Source: Leucoraja erinacea
Taxonomy: Eukaryota
Direction of reading: 5' to 3'
Length of the DNA: 64,000 bases
Assembly (NCBI RefSeq): GCF_028641065.1
Contig: NC_073384.1
Coordinates: forward strand, 10,292,001 to 10,356,000
Shown here piece after piece: positions 1,566 through 64,000 of this stretch. Numbering within the stretch: position 1 is the stretch's first letter; every line of letters begins with the position of its first letter. Position numbers and translations under genes: made by a program. The notes beneath the pieces were generated by a model. That model did no database searches. It was not told where the DNA came from and saw only the letters and a program-made list of their open reading frames with translations.

Positions 1566-2721
1566 TTTTTTAAACATTGTGATGATGCCTGCCTTAACTA
1601 CCTCCTCTGGCAGCTAGTTCCATATACATGTACCTACCACCTTTTATGTAAAACAATTGCCGCTCTGGTTATATTAAATCTTTCCCCCCTCACCTTAAAC
1701 ATATGTCGTCTGGTTCTAAATTCCCCTACATTGGGTAAACGACTGCGCATTCACCCTATCTATTCCTCTCGTGATCTTATACACCTCCATGAGAGCACTC
1801 CTAATCCTCCTGCGCCGCAAGGAATAAAGCCCTATCCCGCTCAACTTCTCCCTGTAGCCCAAGCCTTCGAGTTAACTTATGATGCCAGAGAAGTTGCTCA
1901 GCTGTAATTAAAACCTATTGTAAAGAGAAGACAATCTGAAATAGACATGTGTCTTCTTAATGAAGATTAGCTATGGCCCATAGTGAAGTGTCTTTACATT
2001 TCTCAATACAGCTGGAATTTTGGTCAGAGAGTAAAATGCACTTTTGTTTGGCTTCTCCGAAATGTTCAAGAAAGAACTGCAGATGCTGGAAAATCGAAGG
2101 TAGACAAAATTGCTGGAGAAACACAGCGGGTACGACAGCATCTATGGAGCGAAGGAAATAGGCAAAGTTTCGGGCCAAAACCCTTCTTCAGACTGATATA
2201 GGGTGGGGGGGACATGAAGAAGAAAGAAAGAGGAGGAGCCAGAGGGCTGTGGGAGAGCTGAGAAGGGGAGGAGAGCAAGAGCTACCGAAAATTGGAGAAG
2301 TCAATGTTCAGGCCACTGGGATGCAGACTGCCCATTGCTCTTAGGAAATAACAGGAGAAGACTTTCCATGCAGCGTAAATGTGCAAGGGAATGAAAATCC
2401 ACCTGTTCAGCATTCAATAGATCATTCTCTACAATTTTCACCACCTTCAAGGAGATCCCACCATCAGGAATATCTTCTCCTCTACTTCCATTTCAGAATT
2501 TCTCAGGGATTGTTCTTTTCCTGACTCCCTGGATCCATTTTTCCATCCCCGCAAACAATGTCCGCCCCCTCCGAACGGCAGTTTATGAGTGTAGATGACG
2601 CAGCACTTGTCCTTTCATCTCTTCCCTTCCCAGACAATCACAATCACAATCACGATCACAATAATACTTTATTAGCCAAGTCTGTTTTGCAACATACGAG
2701 GAATTTCATTTGCCAAGGCAG

Positions 2722-5700
2722 TCATCTCTTCTCCTTGCGAATGAAACATAAACCAAAGGAATAGTTAGATCTCAAGCCGGGTGTTGAGCAGCCAGGTTGT
2801 TGTCTCTGCGTCAATGTCTGCCAGGCCCTGAGCTCCATTTGGTGGGTGGTAGAGCGGGCACCCAGAGATGACATGGTTGGCTGTCTGTTGTTCTGCTCCG
2901 CATTCACAGGCTGGGCTCTGGCGGAGGGAGCCCCCATCTCCACACGCTGGCATTGAAACGCCCAACTCCAGTACCAAGTCTGTTGAGCTTCACCCATCCA
3001 CGCTCCTCTGGGGAGGTCAGACCCTGGACAGCTTTTATCTGGTGAAGAGATGTAGCTGTGTAATGGAGATGAGGTTGCCTTCCACTCCTGTGACCACTTG
3101 GTGGCTATCCAGTGTGCTTTTGTCTCAGTTGGCTGGATGGATGCTAGGAGTTGTTTTCCATGTGGAGCAAAGGGGTGACGGGACTTCAGTCGGGGTGGCC
3201 TCTGCTCTCTGCTGATAGCCTGATGGAGGAGGTGATCTGGGTCCATGGCATGACGAGATAGTGCCAGAGTTGCTGCTTGCCTTTGGATCCCTGCAGGCGG
3301 AATGCCTGCAAGTATAGGGAGCTGTTCGACTGGAGTAGGTTGAAGGCACCCAGTGATGGTTCACAAGGTGCTGTTCAGGCTCGTGTCTACCAGGCTAGTA
3401 TGTCTACTTCTACTCCATATGGGTGCGTAGTACTCAGCTGGAGCATACACAAGAGCTAAGGCAGAGGTGCGAAGACTTGATAGACTGGCTCCCCAACTTG
3501 TTCCTGCCAGGTGGCGGATGAGGTCACTACGTGCAATGTTGCGGAGACCAGCCAGGATTGATGAAATGTAAGCAATGTCCAGCTTTACGCTGAGGTGGGC
3601 GGGTTTAAAACGCGACTTTCACTAGGCTGTTGCAATCGAAAATGTTCAGCCTAGTAAATCATTAACGAAAATTCACTGAAAGACCCCGTCGCAAAAGGTA
3701 TTATTAGTTTTTATGGCCTTGTATAATAGTTATAGTAGTTTAAAAATCACTCTCTAAACCCGCGACCTCTCGCAGCCCCAGGGTTTTATAAAGCAAACAA
3801 TTAAAGGTATGTACCTTATTTTTACATTAAAAAGGGCTTCTTTATAACCCTTTATACAAAGTTACTATTGCGAGTAGCTAATTTTGGGCTCTTTATATCC
3901 CGCAGTATTTTTCTGGGCATTTGAGGGCACAAATCTAGCGCAATGTGAACATTCTAAACCAGCGCGTTCACAGGAACCCACTAGAAAGCTGATTTAAAAT
4001 GGACTTTAATTTACAGCAATTGAACACTAAATTCCTTCCATTTGGCCTATAAATTAATGTAAATGAGATTTCAAAATCATGTTTTATTGAGAATTATTTA
4101 TTAATATTATTTGGACACAGGCTATTTAAAAATGTTAATCATTTATTAAGAAATGGATAGATGTTTAGATCTAGTAATTGAAGTTTGAAATTAGCTACAC
4201 TTGGGTAACTAACTAATTATATGTTTTAATTTCAGGTCATCCAAGTAAGATTATTTTATATTTGGTTCAGAATGGTTCAATCTACGATAACTGAAAATTG
4301 CATTCAGTTCTCTTAATTTTTAAGAAGGTTATGGGCTTTTGACTGTCCACGATCACAGCTTTTTTGTTATGTCCATAGAAAATCAATAGGGAACAAGATG
4401 CTAATTTCCGAGTATGAAAATGGCCATAACTTTTTAAATACTTGAGATATGAAAGTGAATTAGGTGTCAAATTAAACTTCTTTTTATGCTTTATCTGATG
4501 GGATAAATTACAGACTTGATTTTTTAATTCTCAAAATTGCTAGGTATACTGCCAACTTCCCCAGGTCTTGACTCAAGGAGTTTTCGATTGTATTCCACTC
4601 TTTCTTTTTTTTTTTCCTTTCTTATTTATTTTATTAGAAGTATGTACAGTAATGTGGCACCGAGGTGCCTAATATATATTGGCATGTTACATTTTATGTA
4701 CAACTTCATTTTTATTTATTTTTTAATAATAAAAGAGAGAAAGAGAGAATAGATAATAAAAAATAGAAAAACGTGTGATATATGGTGCGTGAAAAGGAAA
4801 AGGGAGGAAAGAGAGAACGTGAGGGAAAAACAAGGAGAGAGAAAGAGAAAGAGTAGAAAGTAGGAGATTATAGGAGATAGGTATTTATAATCTTGACCAT
4901 CCTTCTCCCAGTCCTGAAACAATCGTCTTCCACTCTCTGTGTCTCATCAGGATGGCTAGATCGTCAGCATACCCATATTTTCCAGCGATGGTCTCTGGGA
5001 GGTCATGGATGTACACGTTGAAAAGCAGCGGAGCCAAGACGGAACCCTGTGGGACACCATTCTTCAGTCTGCTGAGCCTACTCTGCTGTCCATCACTAGT
5101 CGCAAGCACAAAGCTGCGGTTTGATATCAACTTCATGATGTAGCGTACCATGCGCCTGCCTGGCAGTGCCTGAAGTAGCATTGCAGTTAGTCCCCGGTGC
5201 CACACGGTGTCAGATCTATAACAACAGCTCCTGCCGTCTCGTTTGCCCCAAAGCAGTCCTCGATGTCTTGGGCGGGGAGGCTTACCTGGTCCACAGTAGA
5301 TCGACCTTGGCAGAAACCAGTCTGCTCGTGGGGTAGTTGAGGGTCTATGATGGGTTTGATATGCCCGTGGATCCGCCTCTCAAGGAGTTTGTATGGGATA
5401 CAGAGCAGCGAGATGGGCCGGAAGCTTTTAGGATCATCCTTTGGCTTGTTCGGCTTTGGGAGAGCGATGACTGTTGCACGACGCCAGATCTTTGGCATTT
5501 TGCATTTCTCCATGGAGGTTGGCGGGTACTGTCGGATCCAGTTGGTAGCAACTTCTCCAGAATGTAGTAGAAACTCCAGGTGCATGCTGTCAGATCCTGG
5601 CTCCTATCCTGCTTTCAACATCTTGAGTGCTGTGGCCATTTCCTTGGAGGTGAAAGCCATTGTTAGGTCCGTATCCACTCTCTCAATTTTCCATCACTCG

Positions 5701-5845
5701 GCCACCTCTTTGCTCACTTCGCACGAGAAATCATGGTCAGAGTTTGTGAATCGACCATTCTTGACTAGTTGAGATGGGATTGCGTTGGTGGTGACTGGGC
5801 ATTTTCCGTGTTTGGATGTAGCTCTGTCGGTCAGGGGGTTGACTG
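2722..5845 (-). mobile_element. Degenerate Ingi/Vingi-like (I-group) LINE interrupted by two insertions
   Basis: RT motifs WRRATVIALPKPNKPKDDPKSFRPISLLC, NGVPQGSVLAPLLFNVY and YADDLA. C-terminal RLKSRHPF and CECGAEQQTANHVISGCP. 3' end ...CGCAAGGAGAAGA. Frameshifted. Confidence 0.7.
4590..4925 (-). mobile_element. Poly(A)-tailed LINE 3' end (L1/Tx1-like) nested in the Vingi-like element
   Basis: T-rich tail with TTTATT at ~4600-4635 (poly(A) and AATAAA on the minus strand), a purine-rich 3'UTR-like stretch, and a short coding remnant. Confidence 0.4.
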
Positions 5846-7080
5846 TAGAACACACTAAACACATTTTTAACATAAACATCCATCACAGTGACTCCTCCAC
5901 ATTACTCACTGTGATGGAACGCGAAAAAAGTTCAATCTTTTCCCTTTGCTCTCCCACGGTCAGGGGCCTTGAACCAGGGTGATCTGACTCCCTTAGCCGG
6001 CACGTTTTGGCCCTGCACATCGGGGAGATCAGCTCCTGCATCGGGGCGATGTCAGCTCCTCCGTGCTGGACGATCGAACCCCGCGTCGGTGCGGGTCGAG
6101 CCTCTGCGTTCGTTGGAGCTCCTGACGTCCACGGCCTCTCCCGAGACTGCAAGCTCTCGATACAAAGTCCGCAGGCCACAGTTGGAGCGATCCCAGGCAA
6201 GTGATTGACTCCGATGTAAAGTCCTCGCCCCGCGGTGGGGCCCAAGGTCAGTCCGAGGAGGCCTCCAGCTCCATCAATGGTAGGCCGCAGAGTGACCGGA
6301 GAATGCGATCCGGAAAGTAATCGCATCGCCGGCTGGTAAGAAACTGAAAAAAATGTTTCCCCCAACCTCCACCACCTGCCCCCCACATAAAACAAACTGG
6401 AGACCATTTATACAAACTTTTAACATACACTAAACATTAAAAAAAAGATGAAAAAACAGACAGACTATTGGCGGGGCTGCCAATCATGCGGTGCCCCTTC
6501 TGGATGTGATGTTGAATTCAATATCTTCAGGTAACATGATTTCTGTCTGTATCAGTTGGCTTTCCATGATATTGGGTCAGCCTATGTGTGTTTTTGTTTA
6601 TTTATTGTTCTCCGGGAATGCCAAGTCTAACTGGCCAGACGTGTCCTCCTGCTCTGGATTTTACAACTCTGACATCCATTTGTCTATGTGTAGGAAGGAA
6701 CTGCAGATGCTGGTTTAAACAGAAGATAGACACAAAAAGCTGGAGTAACTCAGCTGGTCAGACAGCATCTCAGGAGAAAAGGAGTAGGTGATGTTTCAGG
6801 TCGAGACCCTTCTTCAGACTGAGAGTCAGGGGTACTATGTTCCTTTGTCTATGCTTTCACTTTACTTATTCCCGTCTACTCACTGACCAGATGACCTTAT
6901 TTCCATCTTATCGTCATGGTCACCCCAATTCAACTCTAACATTGATGTTCCTAAATTCCACACCCCCCTCCTCTACCCCTTCATGTTCCCCCCCCCCTTT
7001 TTATCATGTAGTGCAGTGGAGTGGGGTCCCCTTCTCTCCCAATCTCTCCCCTTCTCATTTTGATTGGTTCTCTTTCAGGA

Positions 7081-15427: not shown

Positions 15428-16111
15428 CCTAGCTGGAATCAATGATCAGAAGACACTGCCCTTTCTTGAGGGGGTAGGAAAGAACTGCAGATGATGATTT
15501 GAATCGAAGAAAGACACAAAATGCTAGAATAACTCATCGGGACAGGCCGCATCTTTGGAGAGATGTTTCGGGTCGAGACCATTCTCCCTTCTCTCCGGAG
15601 ATGCTGTCTGTCCCGCGGAGTTACTCCAGCATTTTGTGTCTACCTTACTTGAGGGGGGTTTGCGATGAGGCAAAGCGCTAGATGAGAAAAAGTGTGCTTG
15701 AACTTTTCAAGTGCATCTTCGCTGGAATGTTAAAGATGAAGGAATGTTGACATTGTAACTCCCAAGTGACTTCTTGGCGGTTTCCGCTAGTTTCTGTTTA
15801 AGGGCCGTGGGACAATCGCATCTAGTAACACGGCTGCGGGAATCTGAGAACCCAAGGGGGTGGGGGTGGGGGGTGGGGGGGAGGGGGAAGAGAAATAAAA
15901 GTACATCTGGAAAATATACAGCTCCGCCATCTCCGGCGTGTTGGCCACCTGGATCCGCGGACTGGTTGCGCTTGTGAAGATGTTACTCTGAAGAAGCCGA
16001 AACGCCACCCACTCGTTTCCTCCTGAGATGCTGCCTGTCCCGCAGAGCTACTCCAGCTTGTTGTGTCTACCTTCGGTTTAAACCAGCATCTGGAGATCTT
16101 TGTTACACAAG

Positions 16112-17833
16112 ATGCTGCTGCTGCTGCTGCTGCTGTTGATGCTCGGCTCGTTGTCCGCGGTGACTGGGAACCTGCCTCTGCCCTCTCACACGCTGTGCGT
16201 GGCCGATGCGTGTTACACGGCATATCTGCACAGGAAGACCTTCCACCCAGCCTCGGAAAGTTGCAAATACAACGGAGGCAAACTGGCCACCGTCGGGGAC
16301 GCCGGCGAAGACGAGCTGATCCACCGACTCTTGTCCGGGTTCCCCGCCGGCCGGCGGGCGAAGAGTAGGTTCTGGCTGGGGCTGCATCTACCCCCGAGGC
16401 ACTGCTACCAACACCACCGGCCGCTGAGAGGCTTCCAGTGGACGGCCGGGGGAGGGGAGACGGCTTATTCCAACTGGGCGAGGGAGCCTTTGAGCACTTG
16501 CACGGCGCACAGGTGCGTCCACCTAGTGAACAGCTCCAGCCCCGGCGGCGCCAACTACAAGTGGATGGACGGGTCCTGCAGCCACGCTATGGACGGTTAC
16601 CTGTGCAAGTTCAGCTTCAGGGGTATGTGCCCGCGGGTGGAGCTGGGCGGCCCGGGCTCGGTCACCTACACCCCGCCGTTTAGGGCCGAGATCCTCTCCT
16701 CGCCTCTCATCCCCTTCGGTTCCCTGGCGGTCGTATCGTGCGCCGTGGGCTCGCCTGCCCAGGTCTACATGCTGTGCGTGGAACTGGAGCCTCAGAGTTA
16801 CGGCTGGTCGAAGAACGGCTCCTTCTGTCTCCCCGCTTCGGGCTGCGACCTGGACAACGGCGGGTGCGCTCAGATCTGCGTGAGCGGAGAAGGGGGAGAC
16901 GGTGGTGGTGGTGGGGCAGGAGGAGATAGCCACCGGTGCCAGTGCAAGGCTGGGTACCAGCTGGAAGCAGACCAACGCTCCTGTGAGCCGCGGGACCCGT
17001 GCAAGGGCCACCAGTGCCAATTCCAGTGCGTGGGCCACCTGTTGGAGTACCAGTGCGTCTGCCCGTCGGGCTACCGGTTGGCCGGAGACGGACGCAATTG
17101 CGTGGACCTGGACGAGTGCGCCGGTCGCCCCTGCCACCACACCTGCCTCAACACCGACGGTTCCTACCGGTGCCAGTGCAGAGCCGGCTACCGGCTCCAA
17201 GCAGGCGCTCGCTCCTGCGCCGATATCGACGAGTGCGCGTCCAGCCCCTGCCATGGGACTTGCTCCAACACGATGGGCAGCTTCGAGTGTTCCTGCAGTC
17301 CGGGGAGCAAGCTGGGGCAAGACGGAGTGAGCTGTCTCCCGACTGACCGGGCCACCACCCCCCACATCTCGGCCACCACGGTGGGAGACCGGAGTCCCAC
17401 AACACTCGCTCCTCTGGTGCTCCACGCTGTTGACTCGGCCACCCCTCGCCCTGGGACCTCCTCCGCTCAGCCAGAAGAAACCAGAGGTCGTCTCAGGCTC
17501 AGCAGCTTGGCGGCGGAGACGCGTGGCCCGGGCTTGTCCGCCGTTACTTCTCCCAGCTGGGACGGGGACCAGATCCAGGACCGCTCCCCCGGCCTGTCGT
17601 GGTTCCTGAGGGGCGCGCTGGTCTCTGTCGCCGTCCTCCTGCTAGTGCTGTGCGCGGTGGGGTTCACCCTGTGCCTTCGCCACCGGCTGCTCAAGAAGAA
17701 AGAGAGCAACGCCGGGGACTACTACAGCTGGGTTGAAGCGGCGGGACAATCCAAATTCAGGGCTCCGTATGTCAAGTGCAGCCGCTCAAGGGACAACTAC
17801 ATCGAGATCGAAGCCAGTCAAACCGAAGTATAG
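16112..17833 (+). CDS. CD93: CD93 (C1qR1)-like group XIV C-type lectin receptor, single ORF, 573 aa
   Basis: First ATG is at 16112 (the ORF-track start at 16100 is TTG). Domains in order: poly-Leu signal peptide, C-type lectin domain (FWLGL, YSNW, C-x-DGYLC), sushi-like segment, 4 EGF repeats (two Ca-binding, DLDEC/DIDEC), S/T/P-rich stalk, TM helix. The cytoplasmic KKKESNAGDYYSWVE resembles the CD93 tail. Lies upstream of THBD on the same strand, as in human. Confidence 0.9.
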   Translation: MLLLLLLLLMLGSLSAVTGNLPLPSHTLCVADACYTAYLHRKTFHPASESCKYNGGKLATVGDAGEDELIHRLLSGFPAGRRAKSRFWLGLHLPPRHCYQHHRPLRGFQWTAGGGETAYSNWAREPLSTCTAHRCVHLVNSSSPGGANYKWMDGSCSHAMDGYLCKFSFRGMCPRVELGGPGSVTYTPPFRAEILSSPLIPFGSLAVVSCAVGSPAQVYMLCVELEPQSYGWSKNGSFCLPASGCDLDNGGCAQICVSGEGGDGGGGGAGGDSHRCQCKAGYQLEADQRSCEPRDPCKGHQCQFQCVGHLLEYQCVCPSGYRLAGDGRNCVDLDECAGRPCHHTCLNTDGSYRCQCRAGYRLQAGARSCADIDECASSPCHGTCSNTMGSFECSCSPGSKLGQDGVSCLPTDRATTPHISATTVGDRSPTTLAPLVLHAVDSATPRPGTSSAQPEETRGRLRLSSLAAETRGPGLSAVTSPSWDGDQIQDRSPGLSWFLRGALVSVAVLLLVLCAVGFTLCLRHRLLKKKESNAGDYYSWVEAAGQSKFRAPYVKCSRSRDNYIEIEASQTEV

Positions 17834-28607: not shown

Positions 28608-28608
<1 letters not shown>

Positions 28609-28610
<2 letters not shown>

Positions 28611-41919: not shown

Positions 41920-42205
41920 AAGCAGCCCAGCCCAGAACCAAGCAGCCCAGACCAGCCCTGCCCCACCCCGCCCCGCCCCAAGCAGCCCAGCCCCAAGCAG
42001 CCTAGCCCCAAGCAGTCCAATGTTGGAGACCCCGACCCAGCCCAGGCCAGTGTGGGAGACCCAGCCCAGCCCAGCCCATGTTGGAGACCGGAGACCCAGC
42101 CCAGCCCAGCCCGTAGTCGGAGACCCAGCCCAGCCCAGCCCAGCCCAGCCAGCCAGCCCAGCCCAGCCCAGCCCATAGTCGGAGACCCAGCCCAGCCCAG
42201 CCCGT
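41920..42205. repeat. (CCCAG)n-based minisatellite, followed by a C-rich low-complexity tract to ~43000
   Basis: Runs of CCCAG punctuated by GGAGAC units. Confidence 0.9.
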
Positions 42206-48934: not shown

Positions 48935-49463
48935 CTCCCCGTTGGAATGCAACCTTGTCGTGGCCGGGGAGCTTGTGTGTCTCAGTGACCCCTAGAGCTA
49001 TGCTAGCGGGAGATTCGTCTCCTGTTAGGGTCTCCCATGCTGGACAGGTCGAAGGGTAGAGGCGGGACGAGGAGTGATCCACTGGTCCTTCCAGGTTGGA
49101 GGTTGAGCAGAGGGCTAACAACCCTGTCTCGTAAAACAAATATGTTACGGAAACAGCAACTGAAGGAATCAACACTGTTGGGCGTGATGGTCTTCCAGGG
49201 CTATCGACAGATGCTAGGATGAATGTCAATGGTGAAGAGAACCACACAGCATCCCAAGAATAGCCCTGCACTAGACGCCATAAGGGAAAAGGAAAAGAGG
49301 GAGACCCAAAATCACCTGGCGTCGAACTGTAGAGGAGGAAATTAAAACAATGGACCTGACCTGGGGTAGTGTCTAGAAGCTAGTCTTGAACATGCAGGAG
49401 TGGAGAACCTTCGTTGCTCCCCTACATGCCAGGAGGCATAATAGGCAGTAGGTAAGTAAGTAA
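48935..49463 (+). mobile_element. Internally deleted (bipartite) RTE-clade retroelement
   Basis: RTE-type 5' UTR (CCTTGTCGTGGCCGGGGAGCTTG, GGGCTAACAACCC) joined directly to the RTE ORF end (GKRKRGRPKITWRRTVEEE...EWRTFVAPLHARRH) and a (GTAA)n tail. Confidence 0.7.
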
Positions 49464-50206
49464 TCACTATGATTTACAGCACATAAATAGTCCCTTCGGT
49501 TCATCTTGACCATGTTGGCCAAGTAGGCTTGTCCCATTTGCCTGCATTTGGTCCATAGGCCTTTAAACCTAAGAGATGCTGAAACAAGGAACTGCAGATG
49601 CTGGTTTAAGTTTGAAGCAGAATCCTGACCCGTCTGTGGAATGCTCTGCCTCCGAGACAGGTTCTCTGGATGCTTTCAAGAAAGAGCTAGATAGGACTCT
49701 TAAAAATAGCAGAGTCAGGGGATACGGGGAGAAGGCAGGAACGGGGTACTGATTGGGGATGATCAGCCATCATCATATGGAATGGCGGTGCTGGGTCGAA
49801 GGGTTGAAAGGCCTACTCCTGCACCTATTGTCTATTGAAACGTTACTTATCCACCTTTTCCACAGATGCTGCCTGACCACTTAGTTACTCTAGCTCTTTG
49901 GCCCTTAAACCTTCCCTAGTTGTTAGAATTAGAATTTGAATTAATGTTTAAAATATATCTTCAAAGTTTTTTGAATCATTTTAATGTTCACAGAGACCCA
50001 TAGAATGGTAGTCTTTGGATTAATATTAAATGTCACTGCTTTTTGAAGGTCAACATGAAATAAATCTGGCTTGCAAACATCCTTGCTCTGAGTCCTTTTA
50101 TTCCCTGCAAGCGATTAACGTCACAGCCAATATTGCAACAATATTCTCAAAACAACTTTGATTATCCATGCATAGAACTGGACAAAATTACCACTTGTAT
50201 AAGTAA

Positions 50207-50422
50207 TGCCCCTGTCCCACTTACGAAACCTGAACGGAAACCTCTGGAGACTTTGCGCCCCACCCGGAGGTTCCCGGAGGTTTTTGTCAGTCTCCCTACC
50301 TGCTTCCACTACCTGCAACCTCCGGCAACCACCTGCAACCTCCAGGAACCACGTGGAAACCTTGGGTGGGGCGCAAAGTCTCCAGAGGTTTCCGTTCAGG
50401 TTTCCTAAGTGGGACAGGGGCA
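50207..50422. mobile_element. Near-palindromic MITE (Harbinger-like termini)
   Basis: TIRs of ~60 bp (TGCCCCTGTCCCACTTA...GCGCCCCACCC). Internal ACCTGCAACC repeats. Flanks are TAA and TAT. Confidence 0.75.
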
Positions 50423-51755
50423 TATGTCTATGTTCAAAACACAAAGTGCTGGAGTAACTCAAAGGGTCGGCGACATTGGTGGAGTGTCTGGATCAGTGAT
50501 GTTTCAGGTTGGGACCCTTCTTTAGACCCATAACATCACCTATCCATTCCCCCTACAGTTACTCCAGCACTTTGTGTTTTGCTCAAGGCTCCAGCATCTG
50601 CATTTCCTTGTATCTCCAATAAATCTACCTGGTGATCTCAAATCATGCTGGTAGAATATATATTAGCTGTTTTATTTCCCAATGATTAACCCATTAGCCG
50701 TACATTTCAGCAAACATGCCCAGAATATCTCGGAGACCTGAAACGTCACCGATTTTCTCCAGCGATGCTGCCTCGCCCGCTGAATTACTCCAGCATTTTG
50801 TGTCTGTCTTTGGTGTAAACCAGCATCTGCAGTTCCTTCCTGCACATGGAGGTAAGGAAAGGCTAGAACATTACAGGGCCAGGAACAGATGACCAAGGAT
50901 GGGTGGAGCCCATAATGGCCAATTGTGAGCTTGGGAAGAGGAAGGGATACAAGGATGAGAATTGCCTCAATTGCCACAGAAGGCAGTGGAGGCCAAGTTA
51001 GTGGATATTTTTAAGGCAGAGATGGATATATTCTTGGTTAGTACAGGTGCCAGAGGTTATGGGCAGAAGGCAGGAGAATGGGGTTAGGAGGGAGAGATAG
51101 ATCAGCCATGATTGAATGGCGGAGTAGACTTCATGGGGCGAATGGCCTTGACCACCGGGTGGCGCCAGCCATGGCTGCCTCGCCAACAGTCTGTCTGTTC
51201 TTTCCTTCTTTGTGTTTTAATAGTATGCGTTAAATGTATGTTTTTAATGTTCTTTAGCTTGTTTTATGTGGCGGGTGGGTTTTGGGGAAAACTTTTTCCT
51301 AATCTCTTACCTCGACGGAGATGCGATTGTTTTTCTTACCGTATCTCCGTTCACACTGTGGCCTAACATCGAGGAGTTGGTGGCCTTTGCTGGAGACTGA
51401 TTTTGAGAGCTCAACCGTGGGGAACCAGCGGGACTTTAACATCGTGGAGCCCGCGATCCCTTTGCCAGGGATGGACCTCGGTGCTCCAACTGTGGGTGCT
51501 TCCGGACTCCAACATCATGGAGCCCGCGGTCTCTGGTCAGAGACTGACTTCAAGAACTCCAAGGTACGGGAGTTTCGACCGCCCCGATGCTGGTATTTCG
51601 AGTGCCCCGACGCGGGGGCTTCGACCGCCGGCTGCAGGAGCTTCCATCGCCCCATTCGACTGCCCGAGTAAAGAGGAAGCAAATCGGACTCCATCACAGT
51701 GGGGAATGTGGGGAATCTGCTGTGGTGGATGTTTATGTTAACTTTGATGTAGTTG

Positions 51756-51809
51756 GGGGTGGAAGATTGCAACCTTCACATGGTCCGCCCTGTTTCGACA
51801 AATGCAATC
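51756..51809 (+). ncRNA. HDV-like self-cleaving ribozyme (predicted; this copy possibly decayed)
   Basis: P1 GGGGTGG/CCGCCCT (G1.U wobble), P2 GATTGCA/TGCAATC, P3 ACC/GGT, 7-nt L3 TTCACAT, minimal P4 with a TTCG loop, J4/2 C-A-A-A. Confidence 0.7.
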
Positions 51810-51898
51810 AACCTGGCTTGCACAATCAAGTAAGATCAAACGCAACAAGTTGTCCTACAACTTTAGGCTGTGCACACCATACGCAAGAACAAGAAGAA
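51756..51898 (+). mobile_element. Short non-autonomous retroelement (Vingi-type 3' tail) with 10-bp TSD
   Basis: GATGTAGTTG duplicated at 51746-51755 and 51899-51908. Ends CCATACGCAAGAACAAGAAGAA, similar to the 3' end of the Vingi-like LINE in this window. Confidence 0.75.
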
Positions 51899-52107
51899 GA
51901 TGTAGTTGTGTGTCTTGTTGCTTTTTTTCCCGTATGGCTGTATGGTAATTCGCATATCACTGTACCGTAATTAGTACATTTGACAATAAAAGACCTTTAA
52001 AACATTTAAATTATACTCCTATTCCTTATGACCTTGAGAACAGTGGAGCTAGTAATACGTCTAGGGTGGGTGGTGGGGGGGGGGGGGGGGGGGGGAAGGG
52101 GGGGGGT

Positions 52108-52143
<36 letters not shown>

Positions 52144-52755
52144 AGAAATCAAACTGCCTGCAAGTAATGGAATGCAATAGAGTACAAGAACAAAGAGAGA
52201 CATCTTCAATTTAAAACTATCGACATGGAATTTGACTTCAGTGGATATGTAAGGCAGGTTTCAGTGTAACAGCTGCATTAATAAGCAAAGTGCACAATGT
52301 TCCTTTTTATTGCAGTTCATAGTCATGAAAATTGCGTAGGGGTGGGTGACCTTGCATCCCAGCCAAACTCTTTTTCTATCCCCTCTTTTAATTGAAGGAA
52401 GTCTACCTTTCTTCATTTGGTTTAGAGAGATACAACATGGAAACAGGCTCTTCCACCCACCAACCCTGTGCCAACCATCGATCGTCCGTTCACACTAGTT
52501 CTGTGTTATCTCACCTTCTCATCCACTCCCTACACATCAAGGGAACTTTTGTGAGGCCAATTCACCTACAAGCCTGCATGTCTATGGAATGTGGGAGGAA
52601 GTCAGAGCACGCGGAAGAGGCCCACACGGTCACAGATAGAACATACAAACTCCGCACAGACAGCACCCGTGTTCAGGATTGAACTCGGTCCTCTGGCACT
52701 GTGAGGCAGCGGCTCTACCAGCTGTGTCACAGTACTGCTAAACGTGAGACCATAA

Positions 52756-53240
52756 AGGGCCTGTCCCACGAGCATGCGACTGCATGCGGCAAGCGTGACC
52801 TAACGTGGTCGCTTGAGCCGTACGGCCTCGCGGGGCCGGTCCCACTTCAATCGCCGGAGCCATATGGAGTTGTGCGGACTGGTCCCGACATCGTGCGGGG
52901 CTCCGAAAAACTGACACAGTCCAAAAATTCCGCGCGGTAATGGCCTGCTGGCCCGCAGTCGCATTGAGGCCGTACGCACCGCCTCGATGCTGTTCGCACC
53001 ATCTCGACGGCATACGCCTAACGCAAACTTCCCGCGGACTTTACTCGAACTTCACGTTAACTTGTACGGGGTCATTCCATCTCCGTGCGGCCCCCGGTTA
53101 CGGTTTGGTCGTGCTCGCCCCATGCAGTTGCATGCTCGTGGGACAGGCCCTGTACGGGGATCACTCGACCTCCGCGGGGCCCCCACTTCCGGTTTGGTCA
53201 CGCTCGCCGCATGCAGTCGCATGCTGGTGGGACAGGCCCT
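52756..53240. mobile_element. PIF/Harbinger-type MITE
   Basis: TIRs of ~45 bp (AGGGCCTGTCCCACGAGCATGCGACTGCATGCGG...). TAA on both flanks (52753-52755, 53241-53243). An extra copy of the right end lies at ~53065-53150. Confidence 0.8.
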
Positions 53241-56035
53241 TAAGACATCGGAGCATTATTAGGCTATTTGGCCCATTGAATCTGCTCCAGTGATTTGTGG
53301 TGGATCTATTGTGGTTGATCTATTTTTTCCTCTCAACGCCATTCTCCTGCCTTCACCTTGTAACCTTTCACACCCAATTTTTTAAAGCACTCCCCTTTAA
53401 AAACACCCATTGACTTGGTCTCCACAGCCCTCTTTGGTCAATTCCACAGATTCACCATCCTTTGGCGAAATAAATTTCCCCTTATCTACATTTTAAAGGT
53501 ACATCCACTTATTCTGAAGCTTTGCCCTCTGGTCCTAGCCTCTCCCACTTCTGGAAAACATCCTCTCCACATCCACTCCATCTCGGCCTTTCATTGTTCG
53601 ATAGGCTTCAATGGGATCCCATCTCATCCTTCTAAAGTCCAGTGAGTACAGGCTCAAATCTATCAAATGCTCCACGTATATTAACCTGAGATCATTCTAA
53701 TATACGTCCTCTGGGCCCTCTCCAACGTCTGCACATCCTTCCTCAGATATGGAGCCAAAAACCACTCAATGTATCATTGCTAAACATTATTGCTGCATGT
53801 AAAACTGATAACCAGGAAAGAAGAGATTATGGACACTGGTTCTGCAGCCATTTTATTATTTATAATGATTATAAAGCAGAAAGAATAATTTAATGTCTAA
53901 ACCCGCAGACAACTTTCTTCGCAAGATCTTCAATAACTTTGTTCAAAATAAGAAATATTTAAGACTTACTCAAAATGCATGAAAGAATGTGACAAAAGAT
54001 GGCGCCGTGTAGAAAGACTGCATTTATATATGAACTCTTCAAAATTATTAAAGTTTCACCGATATATTGTGAACACCACACACCGCACAAATGCATAATA
54101 TTTTACAAACACTGAAATTAAAAAGGCAATTATCAAAACCTTTTTAAGTTTTTTCCATGAATTATGAACCTATTCCTTCAAACGCAGCAGGACGGTGAAC
54201 AAAAACAAAGTCATTTTGAATGATAAATAAACACAACTCAGCTCATGTGCAAATGTACGACTTTGGCCTGTGCAAATTTGGATTTTAAACTGGTCGATGG
54301 TCAAAGAAGATAAGGGGTTATTGAAAGTAGGGTGAAAAATGCATTCGATGCTGGTAGAATGTTTGTTTACATTACTCAATGTTCCAATGTGAAAAATTGG
54401 AACACAAAACTTTGCTTCATTGGCTGAATTATTATGCATATTTATACATCTCTTGCGCACTACACCAATGAAAGGAACTGCAGATGCAAACTTTACAACT
54501 CCTCACCCTTCTGTCGTGGGGCATAGACTGAGACTGACTGCCCCCCGCCCGTCCCCACCGCCCCAATCTTTGCACAACCCCCAAGCCTTCCCACTTGTCA
54601 CTTTAATTTCATGTTTCATGTAAAGTGTGTTTTGTGTATCTTGTGTTTTTATGACCGTTGGCAGATCAATTTCCCTCCTGGGATAAATAAAATTCTATCG
54701 TATCATATCATATCGTATAGTATGCTGGTTTATACCGAAGATAGACACAATGTGCTGGAACAACTCAGCTAGTCAGGCAGCATCCCTGGAGGATAGGAAG
54801 CGGTGATGATATGGGTCGAGACCCTTCTTCAGACTCTTTTGATCTTTAACTATTTAACCTGCATGTCTCTATTAATTTGATTATGAATGACAGCAGATAT
54901 TCAGCTTTATACTGAGTTTACATTTGCTCCATTACTGTAATTACTGAGTGTGGAATTCTCTGCCTCAGAGGGCGGAGGAGGCAGGTTCTCTGGATGCTTT
55001 CAAGAGAGAGCTAGATAGGGCTTTTAAAAATAGCGGAATCAGGGGATATAGGGAGAAGGCAGGAACGGGGTACTGATTGTGGATGATCAGCCATGATCAC
55101 ATTGAATAGCCAAATGGCCTACTCCTGCACATATTGTCTATTGTCTAGTGTATTGGAACTTTCGATGCACAGTATAAATCTGTGTACACAAAAAAGCTGG
55201 AGAAACTCAGCGGATGCAGCAGCATCTATGGAGCGAAGGAAATAGGCAACGTTTCGGGCCAAAACCCTTCTTCTGTATAAATCTGTGTGTTTCTTCATTA
55301 GTAACCATCTGCCAGTGGCACACTTACTATTCGAGTTTAGAGTTTGGTTTATTATCACATGTAACGAGGTACAGTGAAAAGCTTACAAGGTCAAGGGAGA
55401 AGCCTCACTCCTTGGACTTACATGGCCTCACCCGCTGAGTTTCTCCAGCATTTTGTGTCTACCATGGACTTGCACCAAATCTTCTTGGCGTGGTATACTT
55501 CAGACAGAGCTGTGGGGCTGCTGTACTTTGAACTGAGACAGTAAAGTGATAAGCCTACTGGCTCACAGTGCCTGAGGCCCATGTGGGAACCTATCAATTG
55601 TAGATTGTATTCAGTTTAGACCAGAGCAATAGCAAATTATTTTCCTCTTTCTTTTATTTCTTGTTTACAGGAACAGGTCACTTCACAGCACACCTTTGTG
55701 TAACACGCACGCAGCTAGTACAACCGCTGCCTCACAATGCCAGAGACCCGAGTTTGATTTCGACCTCAGGAGCTGTCTGTGTGGAGTTTGTATGTTCTCC
55801 CTGTAACGGCGCAGGTTTACTTCGAGTGCTCTGGTTTATAGACAATAGACAATAGACAATAGACAATGGGTGCAGGAGTACGCTATTCAGCCCTTCGAGC
55901 CATTCAATGTGATAATGGCTGATCATCCCCAATCAGTAACACGTTCCTGCCTTCTCCCCATATCCCCTGACGTCCACCCAAGTTCCAAAGATGTGCAGGT
56001 TTGAAGGTTAATTGACAGGTATAAATTGCCCCCAA

Positions 56036-56567
56036 TATGAGGAAGGGCATTATTGCCATAGAGGGAGTGCAGAAAAGGTTCACCAGACTGATTCCTGGGA
56101 TGTCAGGACTGTCTTATGAAGAAAGACTGGATAGACTTGGTTTATACTCTCTAGGATTTAGGAGATTGAGAGGGGATCTTATAGAAACTTACATAATTCT
56201 TAAGGGGTTGGACAGGCTAGATGCAGGAAGATTGTTCCCGATGTTGGGGAAGCCCAGGACAAGGGGTCACAGCTTAAGGATAAGGGGGAAATCCTTTAAA
56301 ACCGAGATGAGAAGAACTTTTTTCACCCAGAGAGTGGTGAATCTCTGGAACTCTCTGCCACAGAGAGTAGTTGAGGCCAGTTCATTGGCTATATTTAAGA
56401 GGGAGTTAGATGTGGCCCTTGTGGCTAAGGGGGTCAGGGGGTATGGAGAGAAGGTAGGTACGGGATATTGAGTTGGATGATCAGCCATGATCATATTGAA
56501 TGGCGGTGCAGGCTCGAAGGGCCGAATGGCCTACTCCTGCACCTAATTTCTATGTTTCTATGTTTCT
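56036..56567 (+). mobile_element. CR1/HER1 LINE 3' fragment nested in a SINE
   Basis: 144-aa open CR1 ORF2 end with a (TTTCTATG)n tail. SINE sequence on both sides. Confidence 0.85.
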
Positions 56568-58382
56568 AATATATAAGGAGTGGATAAGAATGTGGGGGTA
56601 ATATAGAACTTGCATGAACAATGGTGTGCATGGACTCGGTGGGCTGAATGGCCTGCTTCCATGATGCATCTCTAAACTAAAACAAAGCTCTCATAGGTGT
56701 ATGCAGAAGATACCATGCATAGTTTGAAGGTCAACCATCCCTTCTCTCCAGAAAACGTCACCCATTCCTTCTCTCCAGGGATGCTGCCTGTCCCAGTGAA
56801 TTACTCCAGCATTTTGTGTCTATCCAGTTCTTTCCTACACATGCACAGTTTGAAGAAGAGTAGGGGGTTTCTCCTGATAATCTACCAAGCCTAAGACATC
56901 ATTGATGAGATGGTGATTAATTTAATCATCACTGCACAATCCTGTTGTGCAGAATTTGACTGATTGAGTTTATTATAACATTGACATTAGTACAGAAGCA
57001 GTTTATACTTTAATATATCACTCACCACTGGGTCCACATTTGGATTTTACGAGAACACTTTATTCTAAGGTTGCTTGCCATGATTGTCCTTAGGATTAAT
57101 AATCATTTAAGTGCATAGATTAAGTTGTTTGACAGAAGGGAATTTAGTCTGACAGCGCGCTTATCTCTTGATTAAGATAATGTTTCGAGGTGAAAAGACA
57201 AAATCATTACCTAATGCCAACTAATCTTTTTCTTCTGCCCTGGCATATTTAGTGCCAAATCAGGTGCTTTAGTTCATTAGCTTCATGTTACCTCACTGTG
57301 ACTGCCCAATAGTGTGTTGTTCCGTGAACTGTATGCACAGACCTCTCCCAAACTCTGACAACGTGCTGACAGCTGACTATCTTTCTGTCATTCCGTAAAA
57401 AAGGTGATCCGTTAAGATGATCCCCGTTTGTCAGCCTTCAACATTACCCAGGCACTTCTGCAAATTGAATATCACAAGATTGCTGAAGTATATAGTGTCT
57501 GTGTAACAACGTAATTATAATGACAGGTGACAGATACACTCCATAATGTGAGAGACAAAGCTGTCCATTTTTAATCTATCTTCCCACATCAACCGGCAAA
57601 AATCTACATTCACAAGATGACTGTAGATCCACTCACGCCCTGGCCTCGGGTCGGACAAAGGTGGCATTTTCTATGAAGAAAATATCCCACCCTTTGTCAA
57701 TCTTAAATATGACTTCATTTGTACATCATTGGAAAGATATTGTTCGGACAAATAGAATTCTTGATTATGTTCGCTGGTAATATCGCCGACAGTTTCAAAA
57801 TGATAATAGATGCCCTTTTCTCGCTGCTTTTCAAGAGAGAGTTAGAGTTAGATTTAGCTCTAAGGGCTAAAGGAATCGAGGGGTATGGGAGAAAAAGCAG
57901 GAACGGGGTACTGATTTTGAATGATCAGCCATGATCATAATGAATGGCGGTGCTGGCTCGAAGGGCCGAATGGCCTACTCCTGCACCTATTTTCGATATG
58001 TCTACGTTTACTGTGACCTCAATCGATGGGTTACTGCTATGGCGCGGGTAATCCTCAGGAGAGAAATCTAGTTATTGAGGCTAAACCGTCAACCGTTTGA
58101 GCTGTTTTATGATTGAACGTTGCGCACCTGCACACTACAGAAGTTACCTTGAAAAACATTAATTAGATTTGACATACGACAAACACCGGTTTAATTCGTT
58201 AATAACACGAGAGCAGTTCGCAGAATGGAGCCCATGGTGATGGTCAACTGTTGGTGCGAGTCACGCACACAGCGATGGGAGAGAGACAGACAGACTTAGA
58301 CAGACAGAGGAAACTGACAATGTCCATCAAGAAAGCAATGTATAGGCACAAGGTATATATATATTTTCCAAGCATATTACGA

Positions 58383-59805: not shown

Positions 59806-61949
59806 ATTCAATCAGCACCTTCACCGGTAGCACCTCTCCTCTCCTCTCATCTCCTCTCCTCTCCTCTCCTTCACTCCCCCCCTCACCCCCTTCCTCCCTA
59901 TGACAGGTCTTCAAAGAAAATTATCTCCCCTTCGCTTCTCCCGTCACCTTCTCTGTCTCCTCTTCAGCCTCTTGCTTGGCAAACCAAGATTCCAGCCATC
60001 AGACGGGATCAGAGCGCAAGAGCTTGCAACAGCTAGGACTCACGACCGTGTGTGTGTCTGTGTGTGTGTGTGTGTGCATCTTTTATGCAGTGCGGTTGCT
60101 TTCGTTGTTCGCTTCGGCTTGCTCCTTAAATACAAGACCTGATGAATGAACAACAGTCGGCGACCTACCTATAGTCCTGCGTCATCCACTCAACAGTGTG
60201 CTGTCTTGAATCTTTAAAAACTTGAACTAATCGCACGGCGGATAAATATGCAATATGCCCCTTTCATTTTGCAAGGGAGTCAGGTGGATCTGCCAAATGC
60301 AGAAAATAGAGATGCTTTCATCTGATCGGACACTTGTTAAGGTCGAAAGACAATGTTTTCACATGGGGGGAGTACTGTCGTTGAAAATTGGGCTTTAAAG
60401 TGGCAGTGACAGGTACCCCAAGAAGGACAGGTCTAGATCTTAGAACATAGAACATTACAGCATGGGAACAGGCCCTTCAGCCCACAATATTTGTGCTCGA
60501 CATGGCGTCAAGGCAAATTCTTCTGGGAAGATTTTAATCATGCATGCATTAGCGTGTATTCTGGAATTCAAACTTTCCAAAACAATATGATAGGGGCATG
60601 TTGCATATTTATCCACCCTTGCGATTAGTTCTAAGGATTCAAGACAGCACGCTGTTGAGTGAATGTGCTGGCTCTGGCGAGGGTCCAGAGGAGGTTTACA
60701 AGAATGGTCCCAAGAATGAGTACAAGACCGAAGAAGTCTGAAGAAGTGTCTCGGTCCGAAACGTCGCTTATTTCCTTCACTCCATAGATGCTGCCTCACC
60801 TGTTGAGTTTCTCCAGCATTTTTGTCATTCGCTGTAGTTTAGAAGAATGAGAAGGGGCCTCATAGAAACATAGAGAATAGTGAAAGGCTTGGATAGAGTG
60901 GATGTGATGAGGATGTTTCCATTAGTGGGAGAATCTAAAGCTAGAGGTCATAGCCTCAGAATTAAAGGACGTTATTTTAGGAAGGAGATGAGGAGAAATG
61001 TCTTTAGTCAGAGGGTGGTGAATCTGTGGAATTATTTGCCGAAGAAGGCTCTAGAGGCCATGTCAATGGATATTTTTAAGGCAGATATAGATAGATTCTT
61101 GATTAGTATTGGTGTCAGGGCTATGGGGAGAAGGCAGGAGAATGAGGTGAGACTGGAGAGATAGATCAGCCGCGATTGAATGGTGAGCAGACTTGATGGA
61201 CTGAATGGCCTTATTCTGCTGCTATCTCATAGCCTTATGACCTTATGAACAGTTCTAGGATTTGTGACATGAATATGTCTATTTTTTATTCTATCTCACT
61301 TGACCTTTTCTCTCATGGTAATTGAAGAATTGCCAAGGTTGGGTGTAAAGCAAAGCTGAAGTTTGAATTGTGTATGAATTTATTTTTAAACAATTTCATT
61401 GGTTTTCAAGCTTCAGATCTTGCAGTGCATGACGTGGCTCTTTGAAGTGATTGAAAGTCTCAGTGCACAGTAGTTTTAGCAACTTGTAAATAACCTTAAA
61501 ACCAATTTCTAAACTTGTCTGAGTTTCATTTGTTGCTGGAGGGAACCTATCCCAACTGGATATGTGCAGGCTAAATCCGCAGGTAAATGTCAACAATGAC
61601 ATTAAATGCTCCTGAAAACGGCTCCACACTTTAAGCAATGAGGCATTAACAACTTAGAGCTGTCTTGTTGCTCCACGATTTTATACGTTTTCTGAAAATA
61701 ATTGTCATATGCAACAATGTTCATTTGTGATATGGAAATATATAGCTGTAGAATATGCAGATACAGCCCTTTGGTGCTATAATTAGAGCCACAGTATCAG
61801 AGAGCATAGAAGCAGGCCATTCTGCCCCACTAGTCGATACCAACAAAGATGCTCTATCCACGTAAGTCTCATCTGCCCGCATTTGGCATATCCCTCTAAA
61901 CCTTTCCTCCATGTACCTGTGCAAATGTGTTTTAAATGTTGTTATAGTA

Positions 61950-62435
61950 CCATATAACCATATAACCATATAACAATTACAGCACGGAAACAGGCCATCT
62001 TGACCCTTCTAGTCTGTGCCGAACACGTATTCTCCCCTAGTCCCATACACCTGCATTCAGACCATAACCCTCCATACCTTTCCCGTCCATATAACTATCC
62101 AATTTATTTTTAAATGATAAAAACGAACCTGCCTCCACCACCTTCACTGGAAGCTCATTCCACACAGCCACCACTCTCTGAGTAAAGAAGTTCCCCCTCA
62201 TGTTATCCCTAAACTTCTGTCCCTTAATTCTCAAGTCATGTCCCCTTGTTTGAATCTTCCCTACTCTCAGTGGGAAAAGCTTATCCACGTCAACTCTGTC
62301 TATCCCTCTCATCATTTTAAAGACCTCTATCAAGTCCCCCCTTAACCTTCTGCTCTCCAAAGGATAAAGCCCTAACTTGTTCAACCTTTCTCTATAACTT
62401 AGTTGCTGAAACCCAGGCAACATTCTAGTAAATCT
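61950..62435 (-). mobile_element. CR1 subfamily with (TATGGTTA)n tail
   Basis: RFTRMLPGFQQLSYRERLNKLGL... The tail repeat CCATATAA is at 61950-61975. A related copy lies at ~38516-38856. Confidence 0.8.
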
Positions 62436-63343
62436 AGTACCTGCCTCAATCATCCCCTCTGGTAGCTCGTCCCATATACCTACCACCATCTGTGTGAAAA
62501 AGTTGCCTCTCAGATTCCTATTAAATTGTTTCTCTCTCACTTTAAAGCTATATTATCTGATTCTTGATTCCCCTTTTCTCTGGGTAAAAGACTGTGCATT
62601 CACCCTATCTATTCCCCTCGTGATTTTATACATATCTATAATATTGCCCCCTCAGCCTCCTGAATAAACGTCTAGCCTCTAAAACCTCTCCCTATACCTC
62701 AGTCCCTGGTAACATCTTCACACATCTTCTCTGCACTCTGATTGTGTGCCAAAGGACTCATTTATATCATTGCAGAAAAGAAAGTGGTGACTGATGAGGG
62801 ATTAAAATTACTGTTGTGACTATTCATAGATGCAGAAGTAGATCTTTAGTTAGACATTCCTATATAAACATTTTTAACAGCTGTCAACCTGTTTAATCTG
62901 TAAAAACGTTATTGAGTTTATTATATTATCTCTAACTGTTTCAGAAATGATTTGCTTGGGATCAGAATTGCAATGGATACTGACTGCAGCTTTTGGTTAA
63001 CAAATATATGCATAACGCTATATATATCTGAAGTAAACTGCACATAAGTAGAGAAATCTTAGAAAAAAAAACACTTTAAGTGAAAGAAACATGGTTTATG
63101 CAAATGACATTATAGTACCATGGTAGACAAAAATGCTGGAGAAACTCAGCGGGTGAGGCAGCATCAATGGAGCGAAGGAATAATGGATAGGTGTACACTC
63201 GCATGCATTGTACCCTCGCATGCATTTCCAGATTTCAGATTTCCATCTGCTTTGCATAGCATTCTGTTCATTTAAGGCACAAAATGCTGGAGTAACTCAG
63301 CAGGTCCGGCAGCATCTATGGGGAAAATGGATAGGTGACCTGT

Positions 63344-63371
63344 CTGAAGAAGGGTCCCGACCTGAAACGTC
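63344..63371 (+). ncRNA. Minimal type I hammerhead-like motif of a Penelope-derived repeat (representative copy)
   Basis: CTGAAGA-A-GGGT(CCCG)ACCT-GAAA-CG-TC: CUGAnGA and GAAA core, stem II, short palindromic stem III, UC cleavage site. Confidence 0.55.
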
Positions 63372-64000
63372 ACCTATCCATTTTCTCCACAGATGCTGCC
63401 GGACCTGCTGAGTTATCTGCCATTTTGTATCTCTCTTTCTTATAGACTAGCACCTGCAATTCCTTTTATTATTAATTTCTATTCAATTTGAGCAGTTAAC
63501 AAATTAGACCAGACAGATTCTTTTTGGATATAAGCACGTTTTCAGTAAGAATTAGCGTAGAGGAAGCATGTTTAATGACACATCATTGAACATGGTCAGT
63601 TTTGTCATTTATCTAACCTTACATATTGCATTTTAAACCATTTGCTTATGCATTTCATGAACCAATTAGTATTTCGTAGCCTGAGTTACGATCATACAAC
63701 ATTTACACACTCTCAGAGGTAATATAGCAGCCTGCAACATGGACAGCTGCAGGAGAGTTGCAAAAACCCTTCCTTTAACCTCTGTCCGACACCCACAGGA
63801 AAAATCTACCACACCATTTCTGAAAGATATGTTATCCCTTTAAAGAGCGTATCGGTACTGTGTTATTTGAATGAGTGAAAGGGAATTTAGAAGTAGATAT
63901 TTGTCCAAACGTATTCAGTTGTTATGTGATTCTCACCAGTGCATGATTATGTGAACTGATCGCAATTTCTTACAGATAGGGAGAGATTTTGTAATGCAAT

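Follow-up and report, generated by a model that had tools for sequence, protein, structure and literature searches.

The locus and its hammerhead-bearing repeat

The window analyzed here is a stretch of 64,000 nucleotides of skate (Leucoraja erinacea) DNA with two host reading frames on the forward strand, a lectin-EGF ORF that is CD93-like by its domains (16082..17833, with an AATAAA at 17853) and the thrombomodulin (THBD) ORF (28558..30246, next AATAAA at 31952), amid numerous copies of a short repeat carrying a hammerhead-like motif. The original prediction listed 22 positions for this motif and spoke of more than 20 copies. All 22 lie within a copy on the strand given, and the motif is real and repeated, but the number was an under-count, since a profile of the 133-nt end piece of the repeat returned 54 fragments. 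These cover 5,082 bases, or 8.0% of the non-N window, in agreement with the very high copy number that had been proposed, and the same profile found no match on the reversed window. The 28-nt motif has nine matches at ≤3 mismatches in the 64-kb window, compared with 0.00 expected from shuffles. The motif exactly as it was first written does not occur in the window, but three copies (21617, 37718, and 63344) fit it once the first stem II pair may be G-U. The exact pattern had no match in metagenome contigs and viral contigs, collections ill-suited to a fish repeat. Rfam gave no hammerhead family at E≤1, with all 15 matches under the gathering score; its miRNA matches were rejected as hairpins formed by inverted pairs of copies.

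The copies belong to at least three subfamilies (A, B, and C), with nested and variably truncated ends. An old degraded inverted cluster (619..817) is followed by a subfamily B copy consisting of ORF end, hammerhead, and tail (2064..2340, minus strand), a short tailed copy with a 12 bp flanking direct repeat (6687..6833, minus), and a head-to-head pair with a 15 bp target duplication and one tail (15475..15647). A copy with stem II deleted (15983..16108, plus) ends just 5' of the ATG of the CD93-like ORF (16112). Beyond that ORF, four copies (19334-, 19775+, 20353+, and 20713+) occupy 19327..20802, the last of which is flanked by a 14 bp target duplication and has a short piece of inverted tail on its 5' side. 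The subfamily C head-to-head pair at 21327..22007 has a near-intact core at 21617; a nested antisense copy (21655-21914), with a 12 bp duplication, interrupts the pair's long arm at the cleavage site. At 22700..23293, a long subfamily C copy (plus) lies tail to tail with a short subfamily A copy (minus) whose CUGANGA is interrupted by an insertion. The region 33459..35771 contains a single copy together with three head-to-head pairs (33788/33921, 34375/34620, and 35561/35657), each with a tail on one arm, and a subfamily B copy with a near-intact core (37715..37807, plus) begins at the hammerhead 5' edge. More single copies (39000+, 43002+, 43317-, 43633+, 49837+, 50735+, 54722-, 55174-, 55425+, and 56752+) and the pair 50437-/50523+ lie within 39000..56827; copies 60734+ and 63100- and the pair 63274-/63340+, with a near-intact core at 63344, lie within 60734..63467.

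Coding remnants and insertion structures

A Penelope origin had been suggested for the repeat, and it is supported by pieces of GIY-YIG endonuclease and reverse transcriptase (RT) that adjoin hammerhead copies. The longest coding remnant (P0001; 26817..27066, minus), in the inverted arm of a head-to-head unit, is the C-terminal part of a GIY-YIG endonuclease with one frameshift and one stop. Its matches include proteins of skate, stingray, and whale shark as well as full-length ORFs that combine RT, a CxxxxCxxC linker, and GIY-YIG, and its identity with the end of an 816-aa ORF (RVT_1 + GIY-YIG) is 42%; P0001 alone has no Pfam match, and the GIY-YIG scores of most of its relatives fall under the curated cut-off. 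At 27165..27787 (plus), an endonuclease end leads into a 3' UTR that contains an RT-motif piece as an insert (27459-27629), followed by the hammerhead at 27714 (G12>A) and a cut tail; other copies skip the region 27424-27632. The GIY-YIG-type ORF end expected upstream of 31602 was found by tblastn (31226-31387, E 1e-15), within an insertion at 31243..31697 (plus) that comprises endonuclease end, 3' UTR, and a broken hammerhead (31602-31629). The one expected at 36082 is present, but only as its last nine codons, which continue into 3' UTR, hammerhead 36307 (U16.1>C), and tail (36080..36439, plus). The compound insertion at 32150..33397 (minus) has a main arm (33207-33315) and, beyond an intervening CR1 fragment, that arm's tail (32766-32793), an inverted arm (33323-33397, plus), and, in partial tandem, a second unit made up of ORF end, 3' UTR, hammerhead 32255-32282, and tail. 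Nested in an older ORF end at 32506..32723 is a subfamily B head-to-head pair with a 13-15 bp target duplication and a one-arm tail. Within the window there is no full-length ORF flanked by hammerhead-bearing pLTRs. The Neptune clade is marked by a CX2-5CxxC linker ahead of the endonuclease and by a CCHH motif. The CxxxxCxxC linker of the closest relatives (P0002, P0005, and P0022), which lies outside the window's own remnant and is shared with Nematis, suggests that the source Penelope-like elements (PLEs) were of Neptune type, an assignment read from relatives that would also fit Nematis.

The structures of the insertions match the hallmarks of PLE insertion (PMC8557442, PMC3846280, PMC11167929). 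Their 3' ends are bimodal, with 17/54 at columns 94-104, 21/54 at columns 125-133, and only 1/54 at columns 113-124, and these two end points recur in hundreds of contigs from other loci, beyond which the flanks are AT-rich and unlike one another. The optional tail, found at one end, measures ∼35 nt, which is within the 30-40 nt of PLEs. Truncation at the 5' end is accompanied by inverted and tandem structures, namely, nine evaluable head-to-head pairs and one partial tandem; by pattern, eight of the nine pairs have the tail on exactly one arm and none has it on both, and a degenerate tail was found in the ninth by alignment. Flanking direct repeats occur in 12/38 units versus 26/1,406 mismatched pairs, a comparison in which the unit bounds were drawn manually with the sequence in view and at least one hit (60735) probably arose by chance; the target duplications are 9-16 bp long. 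We conclude that the copies are very probably fossil insertion products of autonomous, presumably Neptune-type PLEs, and they are old, broken, and almost certainly inert fragments of Penelope-type ends in the skate genome.

By this account, the element's GIY-YIG endonuclease would cut AT-rich DNA with a 9-16 bp stagger, and the RT would begin internally at either of two points, which lie about 65 and 100 nt 3' of the position where the hammerhead cleaves; this choice would make the tail optional. Copying would mostly halt within 100-150 nt, in or just beyond the hammerhead, and a short inverted second arm would often be added. To this scheme the window contributes the coding link, the two 3' ends, the inversions, the duplications, the subfamilies, and a neutral-looking decay; internal RT start and AT-rich cutting are taken from the anole PLE (PMC11167929) and other papers. 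That element, Anolis Poseidon PAc (Frangieh et al. 2024, PMC11167929), likewise has AT-rich flanks, two 3' ends that delimit a tail beyond the hammerhead, and no RNA ends at the cleavage site, but it belongs to the Poseidon clade, whereas relatives of the skate element, itself known from sequence alone, carry the Neptune/Nematis CxxxxCxxC linker. The skate repeat is one more case of a known element, in a batoid, and it shows PLE ends taking up about 8% of a window that contains genes.

Hammerhead architecture and decay

The subfamily majority sequences support the predicted minimal type I hammerhead with a palindromic stem III. In all three, the CUGANGA / GAAA / UH core, the extra nucleotide, and the G10.1-C11.1 pair are present, and changes between subfamilies avoid the core. 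Stem III is palindromic and loopless, with C15.2-G16.2 in 19/44 copies and the CpG-decayed C-A in 18/44. Stem I is as weak as had been anticipated: pair 1 is U-A in 19/29 and U-G in 6/29, pair 2 is G-C in 22/27, and pair 3 is an A-C mismatch in 18/26, leaving 2 bp rather than the helix I of about 4-5 bp expected for a minimal hammerhead, and its computed pairing probability is ≤0.001.

The motif is the already described minimal hammerhead of Penelope-type ends. In the available text of Cervera and De la Pena (2014, PMC4209133), the minimal hammerheads of metazoan PLE pLTRs have the same type I topology, extra nucleotide between A9 and G10.1, G10.1-C11.1 pair, and palindromic, loopless stem III, and they are mostly single motifs tied to truncated PLEs, with opposite-strand pairs 100-700 bp apart. 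Cartilaginous fish are not named there. The motifs described in that text differ in having a helix I of 4-5 bp (schistosomes) and a helix II of 7-8 bp, compared with 2 and 4 bp in the skate. The Drosophila virilis Penelope variant, as the same text presents it, shares the 2-bp helix I, but its helix II is bulged and 6 bp long, its helix III contains a 2-nt insertion, and its copies are young and differ little from one another, whereas the skate copies are old.

Core mutations are common, as first noted, and no single copy keeps the full canonical motif. Under a loose rule, 5/32 core-spanning fragments passed as intact; 23154 was rejected because of an insertion within CUGANGA, and 60734 has one stem II pair broken. 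CpG decay accounts for frequent changes such as G12>A (14/42) and G16.2>A (18/44). At non-CpG positions, the core mismatches in 32/364 cases versus 163/1808 in the invariant flanks (p=1.0). Against all downstream non-CpG columns (279/2233, p=0.045) the core is slightly more conserved, although subfamily differences inflate the downstream figure. The core decays like its flanks, in a neutral-looking manner.

For 16 copies, RNAalifold gave no hammerhead stems, only a 7-bp downstream helix (-1.88 kcal/mol) that lacks covariation support. A double-hammerhead fold reaches -6 to -7 kcal/mol in subfamilies B and C versus a cofold minimum near -20, in energy models that do not score the catalytic core. 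Neither contigs nor the raw single-cell run X23 contained RNA end pile-ups at the cleavage sites, which is a weak test of self-cleavage. The source hammerheads presumably worked, if at all, as protein-assisted dimers, and the dispersed single copies would be inert.

Host genes, retrozymes, and the 5' ends of the copies

Copies near the two host genes had been proposed to affect mRNA stability, and co-option of some as active ribozymes controlling THBD or CD93 mRNA is the most improbable of the readings that we considered. The 31602 copy does lie probably within the THBD 3' UTR: near-identical presumed RNA contigs extend from the THBD coding region across it to 31819, the next AATAAA is at 31952, and the copy is also present in organism B. 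However, it has lost the G10.1-C11.1 pair (G10.1xG11.1), the stem III pair (C15.2xA16.2), and the second stem I pair, which leaves a 1-bp stem I; it has no dimer partner within the same transcript; and the presumed RNA contigs reach an equal depth of 31.6 upstream and downstream of it, although contigs gauge level poorly. In the CD93-like gene, an AATAAA follows the stop by 20 nt and precedes by 2.5 kb the first copy claimed for the 3' UTR, and the near-intact 21617 core lies beyond five AATAAA signals downstream of that stop. Run X23 had no end pile-up at any hammerhead; it also had no reads on the THBD coding region and is silent on THBD mRNA. There is no sign that the repeat regulates either host gene. 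The idea of a separate, non-autonomous family fared little better. According to a preprint (bioRxiv 10.64898/2026.07.22.740005), retrozymes derive from pLTRs and are present in one chondrichthyan genome, and the skate repeat resembles non-LTR retrozymes (PMC7229834 and the same preprint) in being a hammerhead-bearing, PLE-related, high-copy repeat of a non-mammalian vertebrate. Unlike them, it has no tandem monomers and no canonical hammerhead, only the minimal one, and it has coding remnants attached: its copies are the ends of coding PLE subfamilies with PLE insertion structures. No head-to-tail array of the repeat appears among the window's 59 tandem-repeat rows, nowhere in the window do complete hammerheads recur in successive tandem units, and the only direct tandem (32150..33397) includes an ORF end. 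Only 2/39 of the 5' ends fall at the cleavage site (columns 34-36), one of them the copy split by a nested insertion, and cleavage products as templates were rejected on this count. A non-coding repeat that self-cleaves, circularizes, and amplifies as its own family is, therefore, quite unlikely.

The 5' ends leave more room for a reading that would supplement, not replace, fossil PLE insertion. They pile up at the hammerhead 5' edge: of the 39 that map between columns -14 and 45, nine are in columns 4-6 (scan p about 0.005), and for several of these a target duplication or an inverted partner independently defines the boundary. Random truncation does not account for this pile-up. Many of the short copies might instead be complete leaders of 100-135 nt that begin at the hammerhead 5' edge, where the TCAGT site would serve as an initiator-like transcription start or as a splice acceptor, and that end where RT starts internally; we regard this as possible but doubtful. 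The TCAGT site fits the initiator consensus, YYANWYY. The sample is small, boundaries are uncertain by 2-3 nt, and the bin at columns 4-6 was picked after seeing the data, though the scan test allows for that choice. RT stalling at a structure accounts for the pile-up equally well, and no RNA 5' pile-up is listed at the site, in a library poorly suited to show one.

If the short copies are indeed whole leaders, a Neptune PLE may mass-produce a SINE-like short element that has no master gene of its own, with an initiator on the hammerhead 5' strand and an RT start 100-135 nt downstream placing the whole leader at 10^4-10^5 or more sites. The hammerhead, shrunk to a stem I of 2 bp (1 bp in one lineage), might then persist as a promoter or RT-binding scaffold, not as a nuclease; we offer this extension more tentatively still. 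So abundant a family offers very many natural junctions, from which one could learn if a short PLE insertion is a full copy of the leader and if cleavage has any importance at all. A tract of 70-90% pyrimidine ending in CAG precedes the site in all three subfamilies and is a putative acceptor only; in the available text of PMC4209133, the D. virilis Penelope intron ends at the same place, the 5' end of helix I. In 3/28 copies, the site reads TCACT, which keeps the initiator and loses the AG and one stem I pair, and rotifer pLTRs have a TCACT initiator-like site (PMC3846280).

Identity and extent of the repeat

The element is real, was spotted correctly and is of a known kind, consisting of short end pieces of Penelope-like retroelements (PLEs) that bear a minimal hammerhead. 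All 22 motif positions listed in the original prediction fell inside a repeat copy, on the strand claimed. The motif gave nine matches in the window at ≤3 mismatches, against 0.00 expected from shuffled sequence, and a 133-nt end-piece profile recovered 54 fragments (8.0% of the non-N window), with no profile match in the reversed window used as a control. The 54 are fragments rather than events and correspond to 38 insertion units, whose bounds were set by hand. They fall into three subfamilies of 31, 9 and 14 fragments with non-CpG divergence of 13.5%, 7.1% and 14.0%, respectively, so the copies are old. Contig depth summed over the copies was ∼8,000 to 540,000x that of the single-copy thrombomodulin (THBD) region in two presumed DNA runs; this is not a copy number and serves only to suggest that the family is very large. 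Minimal hammerheads dispersed by the thousands in fish PLEs were described in 2014 (PMC4209133). In the accessible literature text, we found no account specific to skates or sharks beyond the whale shark genome paper, which mentions Penelope (PMC8455134), and a preprint whose supplements may list this family (bioRxiv 10.64898/2026.07.22.740005).

A Penelope origin had been proposed, and the coding remnants bear it out. Longer copies carry a 200-300 nt pyrimidine-rich region upstream of the motif, preceded by an ORF end; tblastn located endonuclease ends at 31226-31387, 27163-27264 and 2285-2383 and a reverse transcriptase (RT)-motif piece at 27459-27629. The longest remnant (26817-27066, minus strand), with one frameshift and one stop, both read as X, had no Pfam match itself; 922 relatives were found at E≤0.001, among them complete ORFs (about 815 aa) that combine RVT_1 with GIY-YIG, and the closest contain the CxxxxCxxC linker, which characterises the Neptune and Nematis clades (PMC8557442). 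The best matches of the remnant were Leucoraja and Rhinoraja proteins; those of thrombomodulin were Rhinoraja (66%), then Pristis and Narcine, which points to a batoid host and probably to a skate. One copy has a fragment of the element's own RT domain within its 3' UTR (27424-27632, plus strand) that other copies skip, which suggests a template jump. Four annotated proteins related to the remnant (P0002, P0005, P0036 and P0040; three named from skates) join the same endonuclease end to unrelated host domains, and these are probably gene-model artefacts or exonisation.

Structure and decay of the hammerhead

In the majority sequences, CUGAAGA and a single extra A lead into a stem II of 4 bp; GAAA, a C-G stem III without a loop, and UC or UU follow, as in the minimal hammerhead of PMC4209133. 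Differences between subfamilies spare the core, except at one CpG-decay column, and in subfamily B two changes convert U-A to U-G pairs; no two-sided compensatory change was found between subfamilies. The position of these differences outside the core, together with the U-G conversions, is modest evidence that the source elements were under selection.

Stem I was predicted to be weak and many cores mutated, and both proved correct. Stem I is no longer than 2 bp, the next position being an A-C mismatch in 18 of 26 copies, and contig consensus ends from other loci have an identical stem I 3' arm. In energy models that ignore the catalytic core, the pairing probability of stem I was ≤0.001 and its inclusion in a dimer cost about 3 kcal/mol per junction. 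The Drosophila virilis Penelope hammerhead is likewise described with a 2-bp helix I (PMC4209133), and an anole ribozyme cleaved only with protein (PMC11167929); by analogy, a weak stem I would be compatible with function in the source RNA. The strict motif is intact in no copy; three copies match it if G-U is allowed at the first stem II pair. The changes at G12 and G16.2 follow CpG decay. Non-CpG core mismatches (32/364) were as frequent as those in invariant flanks (163/1,808; p=1.0); over all flank columns the comparison was 279/2,233 (p=0.045), a figure inflated by subfamily differences.

Insertion anatomy and the retrozyme question

The 3' ends are bimodal, with 17/54 at columns 94-104 of the profile, 1/54 at 113-124 and 21/54 at 125-133, the last including column 133, where the profile model itself ends. 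Contigs of public runs pass out of the repeat at 35772 (439 and 406 contigs) and at 32506 (554 and 541 contigs), into AT-rich sequence that differs between contigs. By pattern, exactly one arm carries the ∼35-nt tail in eight of nine head-to-head pairs; alignment shows a degenerate tail in the ninth, and no pair has it on both arms. Flanking direct repeats scoring ≥9 occurred in 12/38 hand-bounded units vs 26/1,406 mismatched pairs; one of the 12 is probably a chance match. These features are those reported for PLEs generally, which have an inverted truncated copy, a 30-40 bp tail at one end and 8-10 bp duplications (PMC8557442, PMC3846280; PMC8969392 gives the same picture), and the 3' ends and flanks resemble those of the anole PLE, where RT starts internally at two sites with AT-rich cutting (PMC11167929). 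Two copies are nested inside older ones, and 32150-33397 is an inverted arm plus partial tandem interrupted by a CR1 fragment. At 20695-20712, a 16-nt inverted tail piece lies between the target duplication and the copy's 5' end, a minimal inverted arm. Both 3' end points are preceded, ∼15-20 nt upstream, by their own CAGCAU able to pair with one shared upstream AUGCUG (elements at columns 56-61, 82-87 and 112-117); such alternative pairing, for which covariation support is absent, might define where RT starts in either case.

The original prediction also suggested a very high-copy, non-autonomous, hammerhead-bearing family. What defines a retrozyme is a series of tandem units with a full hammerhead in each (PMC7229834; bioRxiv 10.64898/2026.07.22.740005), and the preprint reports retrozymes in one chondrichthyan genome. 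None of the 59 tandem-repeat rows in the window is an array of such units and only 2/39 5' ends fall at the cleavage site, which speaks against retrozyme identity within the window. The 5' ends pile up elsewhere: 9/39 ends between columns -14 and 45 cluster at columns 4-6, where the 5' strand of stem I lies (p=0.005 in a scan test). The site reads TCAGT (TCACT in 3/28 copies), preceded in all subfamilies by a 70-90% pyrimidine tract; a transcription initiator, a splice acceptor and RT stalling are candidate explanations. The promoters of PLEs have been located in the pLTR (PMC2377424, PMC3846280). Were the site an initiator, short insertions of the most frequent type would be complete copies of an RNA leader, a reading drawn from few copies that we consider rather unlikely.

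Host genes and other repeats

The copy at 31602-31629 was placed in the THBD 3' UTR, which is probably right, since near-identical contigs of run X2 are continuous over 28615-31819 (depth 27-41) and the first AATAAA past the stop is at 31952. X2 depth is 31.6 on either side of the motif; X2 was taken as RNA by guess, from zero depth at 26100-26463, which both DNA runs cover. A raw RNA run gave no reads on the THBD coding region. Pairing in this copy is lost at G10.1-C11.1, in stem III and at the second position of stem I.

The lectin-EGF ORF at 16082-17833 (+), which we take to be CD93-like from its domains and the synteny expected in vertebrates, has an AATAAA 20 nt past its stop. In the interval 15983-16112 (plus strand), a PLE end piece ends 3-4 nt ahead of the ATG of this ORF, and an inverted PLE pair lies 340 nt upstream of that piece; the 5' leader or promoter may be made of PLE remnants. 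A single-exon rhodopsin-family GPCR at 58654-59811 (-), presumably somatostatin-receptor-like, fits the SSTR4-THBD-CD93 neighbourhood of other vertebrates.

The window also holds a Tc1/mariner-type transposase remnant with DDE_3 and HTH domains (10248-11801, minus strand), an RT-bearing LINE remnant (2722-5603, minus strand) and about 20 fragments that we assume to be CR1-like 3' ends (5.0 kb) and eight presumed SINE-like fragments (1.4 kb). A near-perfect, MITE-like hairpin of about 215 bp at 50207-50422 gave a sub-threshold Rfam match.
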